Assembly: GCA_021789915.1 (NCBI GenBank)
Contig: JAJYIV010000031.1
Location: 1-11,357 of the forward strand
Direction: 5' to 3'
Length of the DNA stretch: 11,357 bases
Source: a bacterium
GTDB lineage: Bacteria > Patescibacteriota > Patescibacteriia > UBA9934 > GWF2-40-263
A model generated the notes under the pieces. That model made no database searches and was not told the origin of the DNA. It saw only the letters and a list, made by a program, of their open reading frames with translations. This document shows, in pieces, positions 1,987-11,357 of the stretch (position 1 is the first letter of the stretch; every line of letters starts with the position of its first letter). The position numbers were made by a program, and so were the translations under genes.

Positions 1987-3345
1987 CTACACGATCAGCG
2001 GCAGATTCGGCAGCGGGCTCTTGCGCCCGAGCACCAAATCCTCGATGCGGTACGTGCCGTGGGTCGGCGCCTCAATATAGCCGTTCCACGCCATGCGCGC
2101 CACGCCGCCCGAATCGATCCAGTCGAACAGCCACTCGCTCGCATAGCGCGGATCGCCCTGCGGCACGCCGCCGCCGACGTATTGCAGCCAGACGCGGTTG
2201 AACTTTTCCTGCGATCCGATGGGCGGGGCGATGATGATGGGCAATCCGACGCCGGTATAGAACGACAGTTCGCTTGGCTTCGTCCAGAGGATGTCCGTCG
2301 TCTCGAGCAGGCGGTTGAAGCCGGAAAAGTACGCGGGGCGGGATTCGAAGAGCGGGATGAGCAGGCTTTCGCCCAAGGCGTCGTGCAGATGCAAATCCTC
2401 CGCGGCGCGCCGGTAATAGGCGGCCACGTCCTGCCGCGTGCCCGAGGAAAGGACGAAGCGCAGCTCGCGGCGCGCGATCTTGTGGCGCAATCCGCGCATG
2501 ATTTCCACGCCCAGGCGGCGCTGGGCCCCGGCTCCGCCGACGCTGTACATCATCGTCAGCGGGTGGCGGTCCTTGGGCGGCGAACAGTATTCCCTTCCGA
2601 GCTCGTGGCCGATCGTCTCGGCATAGCGCGTCATGAAAATGCCCTCCGGATCCAGGTTGCAGATGCGGGCCATGAGCTGGCGTTTGGCGAACACGGCCTG
2701 TTCCCCGCCGACCAGCTCCTTCGGCAGCGGGAAGCCCGTCAGGATTATGCGCTCCTCCTGCACCCCGTACAGCTTGAGGCGCTCGACCACGCGGCCGTTG
2801 GAGGCGATGTAGGTGATGCGGCTACGCTTGGGGTCGAGCGGCGCCCAGGCGCGCGAGACGTCGGCGTCCGTCGTGATGCAGTAGATGTCGCCGGGATAAT
2901 CATGCACGTCGGCGAAGAACGCCACGGTGAAAAACGTGGTCACGAGCGGCAGCGGATGGCGGGCCAGCTGCTCGATGAGGTGGCGGCCGAATCCGCGGTT
3001 GATGGAATCGTAGATGGCGCGGACCTGGATGATGGGACGGGACAGGTCGCGGCGCGGGTAGAATTCCGGGATGCGCTGCAAATCGTCCATCATCCCGAAC
3101 AGCGCCGACCCGATCACCGGCACCGGCTTCAGGCGCGAGATGAGCTCGTACAGGATGCGCGTGCGGCGCCACCATCCGCGATCCGACGCCGGAATGCCCG
3201 GATAATCGTTGGCGGTAACGACCTCGCCGCCGGCCAAATCCCGCAACGCGAACGCCGCGCGGCTGTGGCCATACCCCATGTTCACGTCCACCACCCAGGC
3301 GCGGCGGGAACGGCCGTCATGCGCATGCGGCACCGGCTCGGACAT
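1987..3345 (-). CDS. MGDG-synthase-like (GT28-type) glycosyltransferase, probable diacylglycerol/lipid glycosyltransferase, 452 aa
   Basis: The N-terminal VVDVNMGYGHSRAAFAL matches the GxGH..AA G-loop of the MGDG synthase/UgtP-like N-domain, and a C-terminal GT-B half follows. The ORF runs from ATG 3345..3343 to TAG 1989..1987. It lies 32 nt downstream of the LOG stop. A GGAG lies 17 nt upstream, which is distant. Confidence 0.75.
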   Translation of the reverse strand: MSEPVPHAHDGRSRRAWVVDVNMGYGHSRAAFALRDLAGGEVVTANDYPGIPASDRGWWRRTRILYELISRLKPVPVIGSALFGMMDDLQRIPEFYPRRDLSRPIIQVRAIYDSINRGFGRHLIEQLARHPLPLVTTFFTVAFFADVHDYPGDIYCITTDADVSRAWAPLDPKRSRITYIASNGRVVERLKLYGVQEERIILTGFPLPKELVGGEQAVFAKRQLMARICNLDPEGIFMTRYAETIGHELGREYCSPPKDRHPLTMMYSVGGAGAQRRLGVEIMRGLRHKIARRELRFVLSSGTRQDVAAYYRRAAEDLHLHDALGESLLIPLFESRPAYFSGFNRLLETTDILWTKPSELSFYTGVGLPIIIAPPIGSQEKFNRVWLQYVGGGVPQGDPRYASEWLFDWIDSGGVARMAWNGYIEAPTHGTYRIEDLVLGRKSPLPNLPLIV

Positions 3346-4130: not shown

Positions 4131-4139
4131 AGGCGTCCA

Positions 4140-5642
4140 TCATACCATTTTTTCCGCGGTCCGTCGTCGCGCGACTCCCCCGCGCCCTTCCCCCAGCCAC
4201 CGGCACAGGTACTCCGTCGCCACGACGTCGTCCTCATTGTAATCGACGATGTCGCGCAGCACGGCGCGGTCGCCCGTCTCCAGCCACTGCTCGTACCAGA
4301 ACACGCTCTGCGCGCCGCCCGCCTTGGCGTGCCGCCAGTGGTAATTGAGGAATTTCGACTTGGCGATGTCCTTGATCGAATAGAAATACAGCGGGAAGAC
4401 GACGGATTTCTTCACGACGGCGAAGAGGTCGACGTAGCGCGACGCGAAGCGCCGGAACGAAGGCCGGTCTTCGATCTCCTTCGCCAAACGGAGCGTGCGC
4501 GCGCGTTCGTAGTCCGCGAAATGATACACGACGAACGACGGCGGGTCGGGCAACAGGTCCGTCCAGTCGAGGAACTCCTTCCACATCCGGTCCTGATCCT
4601 CCGGCCGTTCGGCCAGGAAATAGAGGTAATAGCCCTCCGCACCCTGATCGCGCATCTGCCCGATCTTCGCGTAGCGGCGCTCCGGATCGCCCGTGATCCA
4701 GAAGCCGAACAGGTACTCGAGATCCAGCAGCGGATCGCCCTCGATGTCAAAATGGATCTTGAGAGGCGCGTCCGGCAGATCCGGCGCGGCGCGCCAGATG
4801 ACGCTCCCGTCCCGCAGCGACCGCGCCTGGAGCTTCAGCCGCTCGAGCGTGGGCGGCGGGGCGTACGGGATCTCCGGCATCCGCGCCGCATCCATGAGCG
4901 CCGCGTCGCGCACCGTGCGCACGCCCGCCGCGCGCAGGGCCGAAAGCGCGCGCGGGTCGGCGCCGTAGAGCAGCGCCACGTCCTGCGCCTCCTCGGCCGC
5001 GCGCACGCACTCCTTGAACCACGGCGACTGCTTGCACTTGCTGGTGAGACGCAGCGGCGGCTTCTCGCCCTGCACGATGCCGGCCACCGTGCGCGCCGTC
5101 GCGCGGCATTTCGCGAGCAGGCGCGGCTCGAGCGCCAGCGGCAGGCGCTCGCTGTCGACATTGATGATCGACGCCGCATGCGGCCGCACGCCCTGGACGC
5201 GCTGCAGCACCAGCGCGTAGAAGGCGAGCTGCAGCGCCTGCGTGTCGTGGATGGTGTGCGACGACTTGATGTCGCACGGCGCGTACATCCAGTCGCCGAA
5301 GGACGAACGGCCCGGCTTGCGCTCCAGCAAGTCGGGGCGCCCGCGCCAAAGCGCGCCTTCGATCTCCGCTTCGATCACGCCCTGGTAGATGCGCGGCGCG
5401 CCCTGCGCCATCAGCGCGCGCGTCTGCGCCGCCGCCGTTTCCATGTCGATGGTGAGCACCGCCTGCACGTCCAGGCCCTTGAGGTATTCCTGCTCGCGGA
5501 CGACGCCCTGCTCCAAAAGTTTTCGCGCCAGCTCCGGCATATCCCCCTTGCGCGCCGGGTCACCGTAGCGGTCGTACCACAACCAGTGCGGGCAGGCCGC
5601 GTACTGGTAGAACATCGAAGGAGTGATGACGGGGAGGGACAT
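4140..5642 (-). CDS. TM0106-family RecB-like nuclease: N-terminal Cas4-like PD-(D/E)xK domain with a 4-Cys Fe-S cluster, fused to a C-terminal RNase-H-fold (DnaQ-like) exonuclease domain; 500 aa
   Basis: N-terminal Cys in YQYAACPHWLWYDRYGD. Putative DxK at APCDIKSS. RecB-type QxxxY in QLAFYALVLQ. Cys triad CRATAR...(23)...CKQSPWFKEC. C-terminal LKIHFDIEGDPLLDLEYLFG matches the PF13482-type predicted 3'-5' exonuclease. The ORF runs from ATG 5642..5640 to TGA 4142..4140. Confidence 0.8.
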   Translation of the reverse strand: MSLPVITPSMFYQYAACPHWLWYDRYGDPARKGDMPELARKLLEQGVVREQEYLKGLDVQAVLTIDMETAAAQTRALMAQGAPRIYQGVIEAEIEGALWRGRPDLLERKPGRSSFGDWMYAPCDIKSSHTIHDTQALQLAFYALVLQRVQGVRPHAASIINVDSERLPLALEPRLLAKCRATARTVAGIVQGEKPPLRLTSKCKQSPWFKECVRAAEEAQDVALLYGADPRALSALRAAGVRTVRDAALMDAARMPEIPYAPPPTLERLKLQARSLRDGSVIWRAAPDLPDAPLKIHFDIEGDPLLDLEYLFGFWITGDPERRYAKIGQMRDQGAEGYYLYFLAERPEDQDRMWKEFLDWTDLLPDPPSFVVYHFADYERARTLRLAKEIEDRPSFRRFASRYVDLFAVVKKSVVFPLYFYSIKDIAKSKFLNYHWRHAKAGGAQSVFWYEQWLETGDRAVLRDIVDYNEDDVVATEYLCRWLGEGRGGVARRRTAEKMV

Positions 5643-5648
5643 GGGAAA

Positions 5649-5721
5649 GCCTTTAGCCTTTAGCCGTTAGGAGAGAATAAGGCCAAATCATCCTAACAGC
5701 TAAAAGCCAAAGGCTAAAGGC
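5649..5721 (-). repeat. Long imperfect hairpin from tandem heptamers (gcctttag/cctttag/ccgttag vs ctaaaag/ccaaagg/ctaaagg) immediately upstream of the nuclease ATG
   Basis: Arm 5649-5671 (gcctttagcctttagccgttagg) pairs with arm 5692-5721 (cctaacagctaaaagccaaaggctaaaggc). There are 13+6 identical positions around one internal bulge. The loop is agagaataaggccaaatca. The element is strongly AT-rich compared with its surroundings and ends 6 nt from the ATG, so it would occlude the weak AAAGG SD. Confidence 0.55.
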
Positions 5722-5754
5722 TAAACAAAAATCCGTCGCTGCTGTCAGCGACGG
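5722..5754 (-). terminator. Rho-independent terminator for the 148-aa gene
   Basis: Perfect 9-bp stem ccgtcgctg-ctgt-cagcgacgg (5733-5754). On the minus RNA it is followed by AUUUUUGUUUAG, from plus-strand ctaaacaaaaat at 5721-5732. Confidence 0.6.
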
Positions 5755-6276: not shown

Positions 6277-6402
6277 CAGCACTCCTTGTTGCGTCCACGC
6301 GTGGACGGCTCGTCCGACGGGACAAGCGTCGCGACTATACGCGAAAACGCCGCGGGCGTCAAGGCACCCCGCGGGCCGACGGCGGAAGCGTCCGAAGTCC
6401 TC

Positions 6403-6457
6403 GACGCTGCTTTTTCTTGGTCCGGGCTGTCGCCGTCCTCGGCGAAAAAGCAGCGTC
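6403..6457. promoter_or_regulatory. 14-bp perfect inverted repeat GACGCTGCTTTTTC-N27-GAAAAAGCAGCGTC
   Basis: Arm 6403-6416 is exactly complementary to arm 6444-6457. The 27-nt spacer (ttggtccgggctgtcgccgtcctcggc) is itself GC-rich and partly self-complementary. The repeat lies in the 255-nt non-coding gap between the 126-aa gene stop (6532) and the 148-aa gene start (6276). It has no flanking T-run, so it is not a classical terminator. Confidence 0.4.
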
Positions 6458-6531
6458 TCCGGCTCCGGCCGCCGAGACCCTGCTTCAATGTCGGGTCCAC
6501 CTCCGCTCAGGGAGCATTCCGTCGAGCCCTC

Positions 6532-6923: not shown

Positions 6924-6929
6924 ATTGTA
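6924..6929 (-). promoter_or_regulatory. Possible -10 box (TACAAT) 11 nt upstream of the 126-aa gene ATG; implies a near-leaderless mRNA
   Basis: rc of 6924-6929 is TACAAT. It lies immediately downstream of the flotillin terminator. No convincing -35 and no SD. Supported only by the hexamer match. Confidence 0.25.
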
Positions 6930-6933
6930 GCAC

Positions 6934-8871: not shown

Positions 8872-8905
8872 TGGGAAAAGAACGCTTCCGGACCCTCCGG
8901 AAGCG
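8872..8905 (-). terminator. Rho-independent terminator after cfa
   Basis: Perfect 10-bp stem cgcttccgga-ccc-tccggaagcg (8883-8905). On the minus RNA it is followed by UUCUUUUCCCAC (rc of 8871-8882). Confidence 0.65.
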
Positions 8906-8949: not shown

Positions 8950-10098
8950 TCACCGCACCGGCGCATATCCGCCCGGCACGCCATCGGGGGACAGGACGAT
9001 CTGCCACAGATTGTTCTGCCGCGCGCGGAAGGAACCGGCGCACGACAACAGGTAAAAGCGCCACATGCGGAAAAACCGCTCGCCGTAATGCTCCTTGAGG
9101 GCGGGCCAGGCGCGCTCGAAGTTGGCGTCCCAGGCCATGAGCGTCCGATCGTAGTCGACGCCGAAGTTGTGCCAGTCCTCGAGCACGAAACGTCCTTCCG
9201 CGGCATGGGCGAGCTGCACGGCAGACGGGATCATGGAGTTCGGGAAGATGTATTTTTCGATCCACGGATCCGTCGAACGCACGGAACGGTTGCCGCCGAT
9301 GGTGTGCAGCAAAAAGAGCCCGCCGGGCTTAAGGCAGCGGCGCACGACGGCCATGTACGTGCCGTAATTCTTGTAGCCGACGTGCTCGATCATGCCGAGC
9401 GACACGACGTGGTCGAACGTTTCGCGCAGCTCGCGGTAATCCTGCAGGCGGATTTCCACCGGCAGCCCCGCCGCGCGTTCGTCCGCGAGCGCCTTCTGCT
9501 CGCGCGACACCGTCACGCCGACGACGTGCGCACCATACCGCTGCGCAGCGAAAATCGCGAAGCTCCCCCAGCCGCAGCCGATGTCCAGCACGCGCTGCCC
9601 CTCCTTCAAACCGATCTTGCGGCACACCAAATCCAGCTTGGCCTCCTGCGCCTCGTCGAGCGTCATGTCCCCGTGAGCCGAAAGATCGCCGTTTTGCAGG
9701 GGTCGCCAATAGGCACAGGTGTACGTCATGCGCGCATCCAGCATGGCGCGGTACAAATCGTTGCCGAGATCGTAATGCGCCTCGCCGACGCGGAAGGCGC
9801 GGCGCTTGTTCTGCCGGTTCGTCAGCGCGGCGAGCAGCCAATCGACCGCGAGCGCGGCGCTCGGCCGCAGCGCGCGGCGCACGTCCGTGCGCAGCAGGCG
9901 CGCGACCAGTTCGTCCAGCCGGTCGCAATCCCACCAGCCGTCCATGTACGACTCGCCAAAACCCAGCGTGCCGTCCGCAAGCACGCGCGCGTAAAACCGG
10001 TCGTCGCGCACCTGCGGATCCCAGGGATCCGAACCGTTCATTTGAACGCCGGCAGCGGACAGGACGTCGCGTATGGCTGGCGGAAAAGAAACGGGCAT
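8950..10098 (-). CDS. cfa: Cyclopropane-fatty-acyl-phospholipid synthase family SAM-dependent methyltransferase, 383 aa
   Basis: Carries the SAM-binding VLDIGCGWGSFAIFAAQRYGAHVVGVTVSREQ, plus VSLGMIEHVG and CLKPGGLFLLHTIGG, which are characteristic of the CFA synthase/mycolic acid cyclopropane synthase family. The probable start is ATG 10098..10096 (MPVSFPPAIRD...), with GGAGG upstream. The ORF-track start at 10182 would translate the structured IGR. Stop is TGA at 8952..8950. Confidence 0.88.
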   Translation of the reverse strand: MPVSFPPAIRDVLSAAGVQMNGSDPWDPQVRDDRFYARVLADGTLGFGESYMDGWWDCDRLDELVARLLRTDVRRALRPSAALAVDWLLAALTNRQNKRRAFRVGEAHYDLGNDLYRAMLDARMTYTCAYWRPLQNGDLSAHGDMTLDEAQEAKLDLVCRKIGLKEGQRVLDIGCGWGSFAIFAAQRYGAHVVGVTVSREQKALADERAAGLPVEIRLQDYRELRETFDHVVSLGMIEHVGYKNYGTYMAVVRRCLKPGGLFLLHTIGGNRSVRSTDPWIEKYIFPNSMIPSAVQLAHAAEGRFVLEDWHNFGVDYDRTLMAWDANFERAWPALKEHYGERFFRMWRFYLLSCAGSFRARQNNLWQIVLSPDGVPGGYAPVR

Positions 10099-10108
10099 AT
10101 CTTCTGAG

Positions 10109-10241
10109 GAAGCCTCCGAAAATGGATGGATTTTCGTTGAGCGGGACGGACGCCATCCGAGCCGTAGCAGCCCCGCCTGCATGCAGGCGGGGGTGGCGTC
10201 AGGGACCCGCGAGACGAAAAGACGCCATTTTCGGAGGCTTC
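10109..10241 (-). promoter_or_regulatory. Structured cfa leader: 17-nt anti-SD segment perfectly complementary to the cfa SD region, enclosing a 22-nt perfect palindromic GC hairpin
   Basis: Plus 10225-10241 (ccattttcggaggcttc) is the exact reverse complement of 10109-10125 (gaagcctccgaaaatgg). On the minus RNA, 5'-GAAGCCUCCGAAAAUGG (which overlaps the stop codon of the upstream gene) can pair with CCAUUUUCGGAGGCUUC, which contains the GGAGG SD 10-16 nt before the cfa AUG. Between them lies ccccgcctgcatgcaggcgggg (10171-10192). The gacgccat motif occurs twice (10149-10156 and 10221-10228), each imperfectly complementary (7/8) to gtggcgtc at 10194-10200. Confidence 0.45.
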
Positions 10242-11357
10242 TACTGATTCAAATCGTTGATGTCCGCCTGATACGTGTCCATGGTGGCCAACACCTCGTC
10301 GCCGTAGAAGCGGTAGCGCGTGTTCGTCGACCCGCTGAAGTAGCGCATCGCGGCGTCCCATTCGTCCTGCCGCGTGCCGCCCGCCGCCCCGTCGGCCGCG
10401 AGCTTCAGGCCCGCCGCGACGAAGGCGTCGCGGATGTCCCACGGATCCGGCACGGAACCGGTGACGGCCTGGACGCGCGGCATCCATCCGATCCACGTGG
10501 ACGGGATGAACTGCGCGGGCCCCATGGCGCCGCCCCAGCCGATCCGGTTGCCGTAGCGGTCGTGCATCGGGCAGGACACGGGCGTCACGTCCGTGTCGCG
10601 GCCGAGCTGCTGCGTGATCTGGACGAAAGGCTGCTGGTCGCGGTCGGGCTTCATCACGACGCGCCAGCTTTTGTCGGGCGGATCGCCGGGGCGGTTGCAC
10701 GTGCCGACGTTCTTCCCCAGGTTGGATTCCTGCGTCAGGATCGCCAGAAGGAACGCCGTCGGGACGCCGGTCTGCTGCGACACCCAGTTGGCCGCCTGCA
10801 CGGCCTGGCCGAAGGTGATCTGCGTCGACACGCCGAGCAGTTGATAGATGCGGCTGCGGATGTCCGCCGCCTGTTTGGTCGTGTCCGCCAGCTGGGCCTG
10901 GTACGCGCTTTCCTTGCCCTTGGTGGCGACGAGCAGGTCGTTCTGATCCTGCAGGTCGGACGCAAGCTGGGATTTCTGGAGCGTCTGGATGGACAGCAGC
11001 TGCTGCGCGTCGTCCTGTTCCTGCGCCAGCTTCTGCTGCTGCGCGTTGAGGTCGTCAGCCACTTTCTGCGCCTTGTCCAGCGTCGACGTGAGGCTCGACG
11101 AGAGCTCCGTGTCGCGTTCGACTTCCGTGAGCGCCGACGACAGGTTGCCCTGGTCGATCACGGCATACAGCCACTGCGGCTCCCGGTCGCGCTGGTCGAT
11201 GAGCGCCAGGATCTGCGACATCTGGTCGCGCAAGTCGCTTTGCGTGACGAGGTTCGCGGCGATGTCCTGCCGGGTCTGGTCCATCTGCGCCGCGACGTCG
11301 TCCAGTTTGGCGTTCGTCTCGCGGATTTGGAGGTTGAGCGACGCCTGCTTGACGGCC
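10241..11357 (-). CDS. Coiled-coil protein with C-terminal MltB-like (family 3) lytic transglycosylase domain; N-terminus lies outside the window
   Basis: The C-terminal domain has the catalytic-Glu motif AILTQESNLGKN and GAMGPAQFIPSTW, matching the ESxxG and GAMGQxQFMPS(T)W motifs of MltB/Slt35. The N-terminal >170 aa are Gln-rich heptad coiled coil. The reading frame stays open through 11357 (...AVKQASLNLQIRETNAKLDDVAAQMDQ...). Stop is TAG at 10243..10241. Confidence 0.75.
   Translation of the reverse strand, partial: AVKQASLNLQIRETNAKLDDVAAQMDQTRQDIAANLVTQSDLRDQMSQILALIDQRDREPQWLYAVIDQGNLSSALTEVERDTELSSSLTSTLDKAQKVADDLNAQQQKLAQEQDDAQQLLSIQTLQKSQLASDLQDQNDLLVATKGKESAYQAQLADTTKQAADIRSRIYQLLGVSTQITFGQAVQAANWVSQQTGVPTAFLLAILTQESNLGKNVGTCNRPGDPPDKSWRVVMKPDRDQQPFVQITQQLGRDTDVTPVSCPMHDRYGNRIGWGGAMGPAQFIPSTWIGWMPRVQAVTGSVPDPWDIRDAFVAAGLKLAADGAAGGTRQDEWDAAMRYFSGSTNTRYRFYGDEVLATMDTYQADINDLNQ

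Follow-up and report, generated by a model that had tools for sequence, protein, structure and literature searches.

We examined the spacer upstream of cfa in an 11,357-nt stretch of DNA (the window; contig JAJYIV010000031.1 of assembly GCA_021789915.1) from a metagenome-assembled genome with a G+C content of 66%. The cfa gene encodes a cyclopropane-fatty-acyl-phospholipid synthase of 382 amino acids (minus strand, 8950..10098; Pfam CMAS, E = 9e-88). Upstream of it, in the same orientation, lies the 3' part of a gene for a coiled-coil and SLT-like, lytic-transglycosylase-type protein (minus strand, 10241..11357), which ends with a TAG stop codon at 10243-10241. The spacer between this stop codon and cfa is 142 nt long and is filled by a 133-nt hairpin element, and the whole of this element is one nested imperfect palindrome. 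An earlier note on this DNA had put the element forward as a candidate translational riboregulator, controlled for example by temperature, a ligand, or ribosome transit, that would keep the ribosome binding site of cfa sequestered until the structure is melted or remodeled.

The upstream open reading frame (ORF) has a weak match to Pfam SLT_2 (27.5 bits, E = 2e-6). The window does not reach its start; the full product has 450 amino acids (gene call at 8449-9801 of L074). L074 is our label for contig DAHWTR010000016.1 of assembly GCA_027328745.1, to which the window is 99.97% identical; outside the window, the source sequence that we covered is this contig, which has 21 kb in all. A Logan contig assembled from SRR13170411 (L075) matches the window with 100% identity. 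The nearest homologues of Cfa are 61-75% identical to it, and those with names are from Candidatus Uhrbacteria or Patescibacteria; from these names, we infer that the host is Patescibacteria/Uhrbacteria-like. In an N-terminal alignment, 11 homologues begin with MPxxF... in register with ATG 10098. Judging by this conserved N terminus, ATG 10098 is the true start of cfa, as the earlier note had it, and the public gene call, which places the start at ATG 10041 (363 amino acids), is too short.

Anatomy, folding, and transcription signals

The outermost helix of the element is formed by two 17-nt arms that are complementary at 17 of 17 positions, with 99 nt between them (all of the parts described here are given on the minus strand). 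The 5' arm (GAAGCCTCCGAAAATGG, or GAAGCCUCCGAAAAUGG as RNA; 10241-10225) contains CCUCC and begins with the G of the UAG. The 3' arm (CCATTTTCGGAGGCTTC, or CCAUUUUCGGAGGCUUC as RNA; 10125-10109) contains GGAGG at 10117-10113, with the AUG 14 nt downstream of it. With up to three mismatches allowed, the 17-mer arm occurs only at the two arm sites (0.03 matches expected), and the pairing of the arms is far above chance. Within the arms, a 15-nt inner left arm (UUUUCGUCUCGCGGG; 10220-10206) is 80% complementary to the inner right arm (CCCGCUCAACGAAAA; 10145-10131), with a 3x3 internal loop. Next, GACGCCA (10200-10194) pairs with UGGCGUC (TGGCGTC in the DNA; 10155-10149). The apical hairpin is a perfect 22-nt palindrome (CCCCGCCTGCATGCAGGCGGGG, or CCCCGCCUGCAUGCAGGCGGGG as RNA; 10192-10171), and it is not followed by a U-tract on either strand. 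Overall, the center and the 17-bp outer helix are perfect and the middle segments are degenerate; the stacked helices (17 bp, and then 7, 5, and 7 bp) greatly exceed the length of a terminator stem. The earlier note had described the 17-nt arms, the 22-nt palindrome, and the paired heptamers, and all of these are present where it placed them. It had also described the 5' arm as overlapping the UAG. This overlap is real, but it consists of the last base of the stop codon only. The base of the hairpin is separated from the cfa AUG by 10 nt (CUCAGAAGAU; 10108-10099) that lie outside the long helix and that form weak local or flanking pairs in some folds. A mini-ORF of nine codons (ATGGCGTCTTTTCGTCTCGCGGGTCCCTGA, encoding MASFRLAGP and a stop; 10202-10229, minus strand) begins within the 5' arm and superficially resembles the N terminus of Cfa (MPVSF).

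All of our folding was performed in silico. The 161-nt sense RNA has a predicted free energy of -81.3 kcal/mol (z = -7.75), a stability that no shuffled sequence out of 200 reached. The arms alone, as a duplex, account for -29.8 kcal/mol. The predicted probability that the GGAGG is paired is 1.00 from 10 to 55 C, so the occlusion that the earlier note proposed is what the structure predicts. Its suggestion of thermal control did not survive folding at these and higher temperatures: the probability that the GGAGG is paired is at least 0.996 across the full range of 10-85 C, and the outer stem still has a pair probability of 0.85 at 85 C, which rules out a thermometer in silico. Local pairings of CGAAAA with UUUUCG are possible within each half of the element (about -8 to -10 kcal/mol); for example, the CGAAAAU of the inner right arm can alternatively pair with the AUUUUCG of the 3' arm (10117-10123). 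If the stop codon and the next 9-15 nt were forced to be single-stranded, as they would be under a ribosome, then the outer helix opened and the GGAGG was left in a weak local hairpin of 4 bp (GAGG/CCUC). The geometry that the earlier note envisioned for coupling by ribosome transit is thus reproduced in the predicted folds.

The exact 133-nt element folds better on the strand that is not transcribed into the cfa message. On the mRNA strand, it has a predicted energy of -79.3 kcal/mol with 51 pairs, one of which is a G-U pair, and on the antisense strand, it has -88.6 kcal/mol with 53 pairs, including four G-U pairs. Selection for structure in the mRNA would place the mismatches that are tolerated as G-U pairs on the sense strand. 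The opposite is seen, so the element is a palindrome at the level of DNA rather than a strand-specific RNA.

In our motif scans, neither a sigma-70-like promoter nor a TGnTAnnnT motif turned up in the gap. On the minus strand of the window, all three matches to TGnTAnnnT (4139-4147, 5690-5698, and 6924-6932) precede the starts of minus-strand genes by 8-45 nt. We also considered a cfa promoter within the element and rejected it: the apex (TGCTACGGC) resembles the local TGnTAnnnT motif without its final T, and the scans gave no match. Neither strand of 10099-10243 contains a hairpin followed by a U-tract, so there is no recognizable intrinsic terminator. Canonical terminators of this type are present elsewhere, after cfa (8873..8905, minus strand; CGCTTCCGGAGGGTCCGGAAGCG and then TTCTTTTCCC), which shows the form that they take in this genome, and at 5754-5723; promoter-like motifs and canonical terminators flank the neighboring genes. 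Since the gap has no promoter and no U-tract terminator, and since the corresponding genes are 14 nt apart in a relative (see below), the parsimonious assumption is that the SLT-like gene and cfa are probably co-transcribed as a bicistronic unit.

The earlier note had suggested a comparison to Rfam. No family in Rfam 15 matched the element at its gathering score. With a relaxed cutoff (E up to 10), there were hits to DUF3268 on the minus strand (21.6 bits versus a gathering score of 65.3) and to MIR918, a plant microRNA precursor, on the plus strand (23 versus 268). Both are what a generic long hairpin gives, and we ruled out a known RNA family on either strand.

Other loci and other palindromes

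The 133-nt element and its arms are absent from every cfa locus that we retrieved (six distinct loci with 66-75% protein identity, of which two are syntenic). At the closest of these (L076), Cfa is 75% identical, the upstream protein is 72% identical, and the gene order is kept, with a spacer of just 14 nt (TGA-TTCGTTTCCTCCGT-ATG). L079 is also syntenic (Cfa 68% identical) and has a 71-nt spacer of unrelated sequence with no unusual stability (z = -0.5). Only these two loci are informative for polarizing the insertion by synteny, and the pre-insertion spacer was probably very short. At the remaining loci (L077/L078, L080-82, L083-85, and L086), cfa has other neighbors and spacers of 57, 23, -10, and 92 nt, respectively, without a comparable hairpin, and at some orthologous loci the upstream gene is divergent. 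Relatives of the upstream gene give a similar picture. Among 26 loci from the Joint Genome Institute (JGI) that have a complete relative (46-56% identity), none has a match to cfa downstream (up to 2.5 kb was covered, or less at contig ends), and several have an ordinary terminator hairpin directly after the stop codon. From these loci, the adjacency of the SLT-like gene and cfa is confined to a small clade, the pairing of the two genes is recent, and the element is specific to the lineage of the window. For its proposed riboregulator, the earlier note had named the lack of arms at orthologous cfa loci as an observation that would refute it, and this is what these loci show: both the arms and the whole element are lacking. 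We consider it likely that this is a lineage-specific palindromic element and not a conserved riboregulator.

We found no other copies. Among 185,579 species-representative genomes from GTDB, none has both arms at one locus, and the exact 17-mer has 73 single matches, where about 69 are expected by chance. The paired-arm pattern had no matches in JGI metagenomes. A blastn-short comparison of the element to all of the loci that we fetched returned only the element itself, with no second copy in the 21 kb of the L074 contig. There is no clear target-site duplication; TCAG is present on both flanks, at differing offsets. Of the features expected of an element that resembles miniature inverted-repeat transposable elements (MITEs) or repetitive extragenic palindromic (REP) sequences, it has the palindromic intergenic structure with terminal arms that match at 17 of 17 positions, and the 21 kb of the L074 contig contain one copy.

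We tested two other accounts of its origin. The sequence CCTCCG-N-ATG, which is shared with L076, and the resemblance of the mini-ORF's MASF... to MPVSF... raised the possibility that the left half is left over from a duplication that took in the ancestral spacer and the 5' end of cfa. We rejected this idea: local alignments were no better than those of shuffled sequences (p = 0.4-0.6), and the six tests included one borderline match (0.03). An assembly artifact is also unlikely, as the element is identical in the metagenome-assembled contig at NCBI and in the Logan assembly, and the palindrome is imperfect, with indels, and lies between intact genes.

Three other gaps in the window contain long hairpins, and these are unrelated in sequence to the cfa element. 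The palindrome at 5648-5725 (minus strand) is built from AGCCTTT/AAAGGCT heptamers (sense-strand z of the containing gap, -8.8), and its 3' arm stops 8 nt short of ATG 5642, the start codon of an RNase_H_2/Cas4-like gene (500 aa). At its apex is a promoter-like extended -10 sequence (TGTTAGGAT; 5690-5698). A transcript that begins there would contain one arm only, which hints that this palindrome is a DNA-level feature. Similar heptamers (GCCTAAC/GCCTAAA) are found in L076 at ~5640-5670, where the gene that follows them is a different one; this suggests a family of heptamer repeats that is expanding or mobile. The palindrome at 1873-1962 has repeats of the GTAGAAC type (z of its gap, -6.3), and the one at 6388-6472 has a perfect 14-bp core (GACGCTGCTTTTTC/GAAAAAGCAGCGTC; z of its gap, -2.2). 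The relatives have long hairpins of their own, which differ from these. It appears that the intergenic DNA of the contig is generally rich in long palindromes, and by this comparison the cfa hairpin is one case of a general property of this genome and is not specific to cfa.

Some hairpins of the relatives have arms that, like those of the cfa element, contain GGAGG/CCTCC. In L079, such a hairpin lies at ~1417-1525, and the start codon closest to it is about 70 nt away. In L091, a terminator-like stem with GGAGG/CCTCC arms follows the stop codon of the SLT-like gene. In L077, a short CCUCC...GGAGG hairpin (~3250-3290) covers the Shine-Dalgarno (SD) sequence of the downstream gene. Pairs of SD-like and anti-SD-like arms are thus common in these genomes. 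A different kind of inverted repeat flanks the gene for tRNA-Trp (1582-1655 of L074). This 28-nt repeat (1561-1672) is 89% complementary, extends the acceptor stem into a duplex of leader and trailer, and resembles an RNase III processing stalk. Near the low-coordinate end of the window is a gene pair for a HicB-like antitoxin and a HicA toxin (5-250 and adjacent; 19792-20261 in L074).

Translational coupling and its alternatives

We tentatively favor the view that a nested palindrome of 133 bp, specific to this lineage, was inserted into the short spacer of a probable bicistron and that its likeliest effect would be translational coupling by the unfolding of RNA. This tentative judgment applies to the statement as a whole, including the mechanism. 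In a bicistronic transcript, the element would fold into a very stable, constitutive hairpin whose basal 17-bp helix links the last base of the upstream UAG with the GGAGG 14 nt before the cfa AUG. In the predicted fold, the GGAGG is paired to the 10-nt segment that starts at the G of the UAG, which is the sequestration that coupling calls for. A ribosome with the UAG in its A site would enclose about 9 nt past the stop codon, i.e., GAAGCCUCCG. These ten bases pair with CGGAGGCUUC, and a terminating ribosome would unwind these 10 bp and free the GGAGG. The AUG, 10 nt beyond the base of the helix, would also be brought close to the terminating ribosome. Coupling of this kind would restore the tight linkage of stop codon to start codon that the 14-nt spacer of L076 provides.

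A more specific version of this idea, which we consider a long shot, is that the hairpin is a bridge for termination-dependent initiation: a ribosome that finishes the SLT-like ORF would release the GGAGG and either hand over to, or re-initiate at, the cfa AUG. The 142-nt spacer would then act like the ancestral spacer of ~14 nt, and the process would be a bacterial counterpart to the shunting of ribosomes past a hairpin. Long duplexes may be put to use throughout the genomes of reduced Patescibacteria, in which many genes lack an SD sequence, and this hairpin may be one such case.

A number of observations weigh against coupling, and several of them concern the GGAGG. The earlier note took it to be the ribosome binding site of cfa. 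It does lie within the 3' arm and is fully paired, but its distance from the AUG is not canonical: on the L074 contig, eight genes have SD-like motifs at 5-10 nt from the start codon (and about half of the genes have none), so that a motif at 14 nt is an outlier. Most of the cfa orthologues have no SD sequence, and in L076, CCTCCG directly follows the stop codon. The atypical spacing, the orthologues without an SD sequence, the CCTCC counterpart in L076, and the GGAGG/CCTCC hairpins that lie away from start codons together suggest that the GGAGG may be only the mirror image of a CCTCC that was already present in the 5' arm. Also, the long helix includes neither the AUG nor the preceding 10 nt, so that initiation that needs no SD sequence is perhaps not blocked at all. 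In the window, in L074, and in L076-L086, about half of the genes are without an SD-like motif, many genes start in a C/T-rich context (...CT ATG), and several starts have a TGnTAnnnT motif 8-45 nt before them, a pattern that suggests mRNAs with very short leaders, or none, in this lineage.

Other objections concern the element as a whole. The antisense strand is more stable by 9 kcal/mol, which is the opposite of what is expected under selection on the mRNA strand. The geometry is no evidence of design, because any insertion into a spacer of ~14 nt must abut both the stop codon and the start codon, and so the arrangement comes free. The element is found in one genome only, and our protein collection contains no relative of Cfa with more than 75% identity in which covariation of the arms, a sign of selection on pairing, could show. 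Finally, co-transcription of the two genes is itself presumed from the features of the gap and from L076.

Many of the same observations would be expected if the element is a neutral or selfish palindromic insertion, either MITE/REP-like or produced by a fold-back or template-switch error during replication, that leaves cfa expression unaffected or mildly reduced. Such an insertion would be tolerated because it folds on itself, and its CCTCC/GGAGG content would be incidental. We view this as unlikely, yet still a serious possibility: it fits with a DNA-level palindrome whose antisense fold is more stable, with orthologues that lack the element, with the unrelated long palindromes in neighboring gaps (one of them with a promoter-like sequence at its apex), with the GGAGG/CCTCC hairpins that are distant from starts in the relatives L079 and L091, and with the atypical spacing of the GGAGG. 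Against it, there is no second copy in L074, no two-arm locus in the representative genomes, no paired-arm match in the metagenomes, and no clear target-site duplication. The perfect outer helix and perfect center around a degenerate middle could also reflect selection. A role in RNA processing or stability seems doubtful to us. By analogy with known cases, the element could be an intercistronic substrate for RNase III, a barrier to 3'-to-5' exonucleases, or both, and would let the two cistrons decay independently of each other; once cut, the transcript would lose its 5' arm, and the initiation region of cfa would be exposed. Hairpins of the REP/BIME type (BIMEs are bacterial interspersed mosaic elements) between malE and malF and the RNase III sites in phage T7 and in the rpsO-pnp leaders act as processing or stability elements in this way. 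The stacked helices exceed a terminator stem, the tRNA-Trp of L074 has its stalk-like leader-trailer repeat, and there are several other long stems between genes, all of which would suit this account, but the better antisense fold argues against selection at the RNA level, and the relatives lack the element.

The two remaining explanations are less probable again. If the element were a terminator of the SLT-like gene that lacks a U-tract, then cfa would be transcribed from its own, unrecognized promoter. The SLT-like genes of distant relatives commonly have a terminator hairpin directly after them, with no cfa in the downstream sequence examined, and the GC-rich central palindrome resembles a terminator stem. 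Yet several other genes here have the canonical hairpin with a U-tract and no stem in the gap has one, the gap contains no promoter-like motif, and the L076 genes, at 14 nt apart, must be co-transcribed; we consider this very improbable. The sensing riboregulator of the earlier note, which as a thermometer or ligand riboswitch would open the SD sequence on a signal, is close to refuted. In its favor, the predicted fold buries the GGAGG completely, and alternative local pairings exist; against it, the outer helix keeps its pairing even at 85 C. An aptamer for a ligand is unlikely because no Rfam family matches, nothing is conserved in the orthologous leaders, and the interior is a plain palindrome instead of an asymmetric aptamer. 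The lack of the element in orthologues, the better antisense fold, the atypical position of the GGAGG, and the three gaps with unrelated palindromes all speak against a dedicated regulator of this kind.

Known systems and implications

RNA thermometers such as ROSE and fourU also sequester the SD sequence in a hairpin. Their helices are short, have many mismatches, and melt at 30-42 C, whereas the helix here is predicted to remain paired above 85 C. In its form, the element is closer to palindromes of the REP/BIME type (such as those between malE and malF in E. coli) and to MITEs (such as ERIC and Correia), which are present in many copies per genome and share a consensus. Like these, it is an imperfect palindrome of about 130 bp in the spacer of an operon, folds on both strands, and is restricted to a lineage. 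Unlike these, it was found as a single copy (in the 21 kb contig), and the other palindromes of the contig are unrelated to it in sequence.

For the coupling that we tentatively favor, there are established precedents. Translational coupling by RNA unfolding is known for rpmI-rplT of E. coli, genes VII and IX of phage f1, and the coat and lysis genes of MS2 (PMC12548453). As in those systems, the genes are co-oriented and the downstream initiation region is paired with a segment that the upstream ribosome must unwind. In contrast to them, the spacer is 142 nt long, the inhibitory partner lies just past the stop codon rather than within the upstream coding sequence, the helix, with 17 perfect bp and -29.8 kcal/mol, is much stronger, the element is not conserved, and coupling is a prediction. 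The cfa gene of E. coli is itself regulated through its long 5' untranslated region, on which the small RNAs RydC, ArrS, CpxQ, GcvB, and OxyS act; these trans-acting, Hfq-dependent RNAs modulate the access of RNase E and Rho to a monocistronic leader (PMC6755755, PMC12691595). The gene is the same, and the earlier note drew this parallel, but the structure here is a cis-acting palindrome in an intercistronic spacer, and we found no counterpart to the E. coli leader in sequence or structure. By analogy, the element is best filed as a single-lineage structure that would function like the intercistronic structures that sequester SD sequences and that looks like the palindromes of the REP/MITE type.

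On either reading, coupling or neutral insertion, this is not a new class of regulator. If the insertion is neutral, then it is a caution that in GC-rich, palindrome-rich genomes, CCUCC and GGAGG arms beside a start codon are not, by themselves, evidence of a riboregulator. If coupling is true, then a palindromic insertion would have been absorbed into an operon without breaking the coupling of stop codon to start codon, and, in an uncultured lineage with reduced genomes, a gene like those for cell-wall hydrolases would be tied to the cyclopropanation of membrane lipids.

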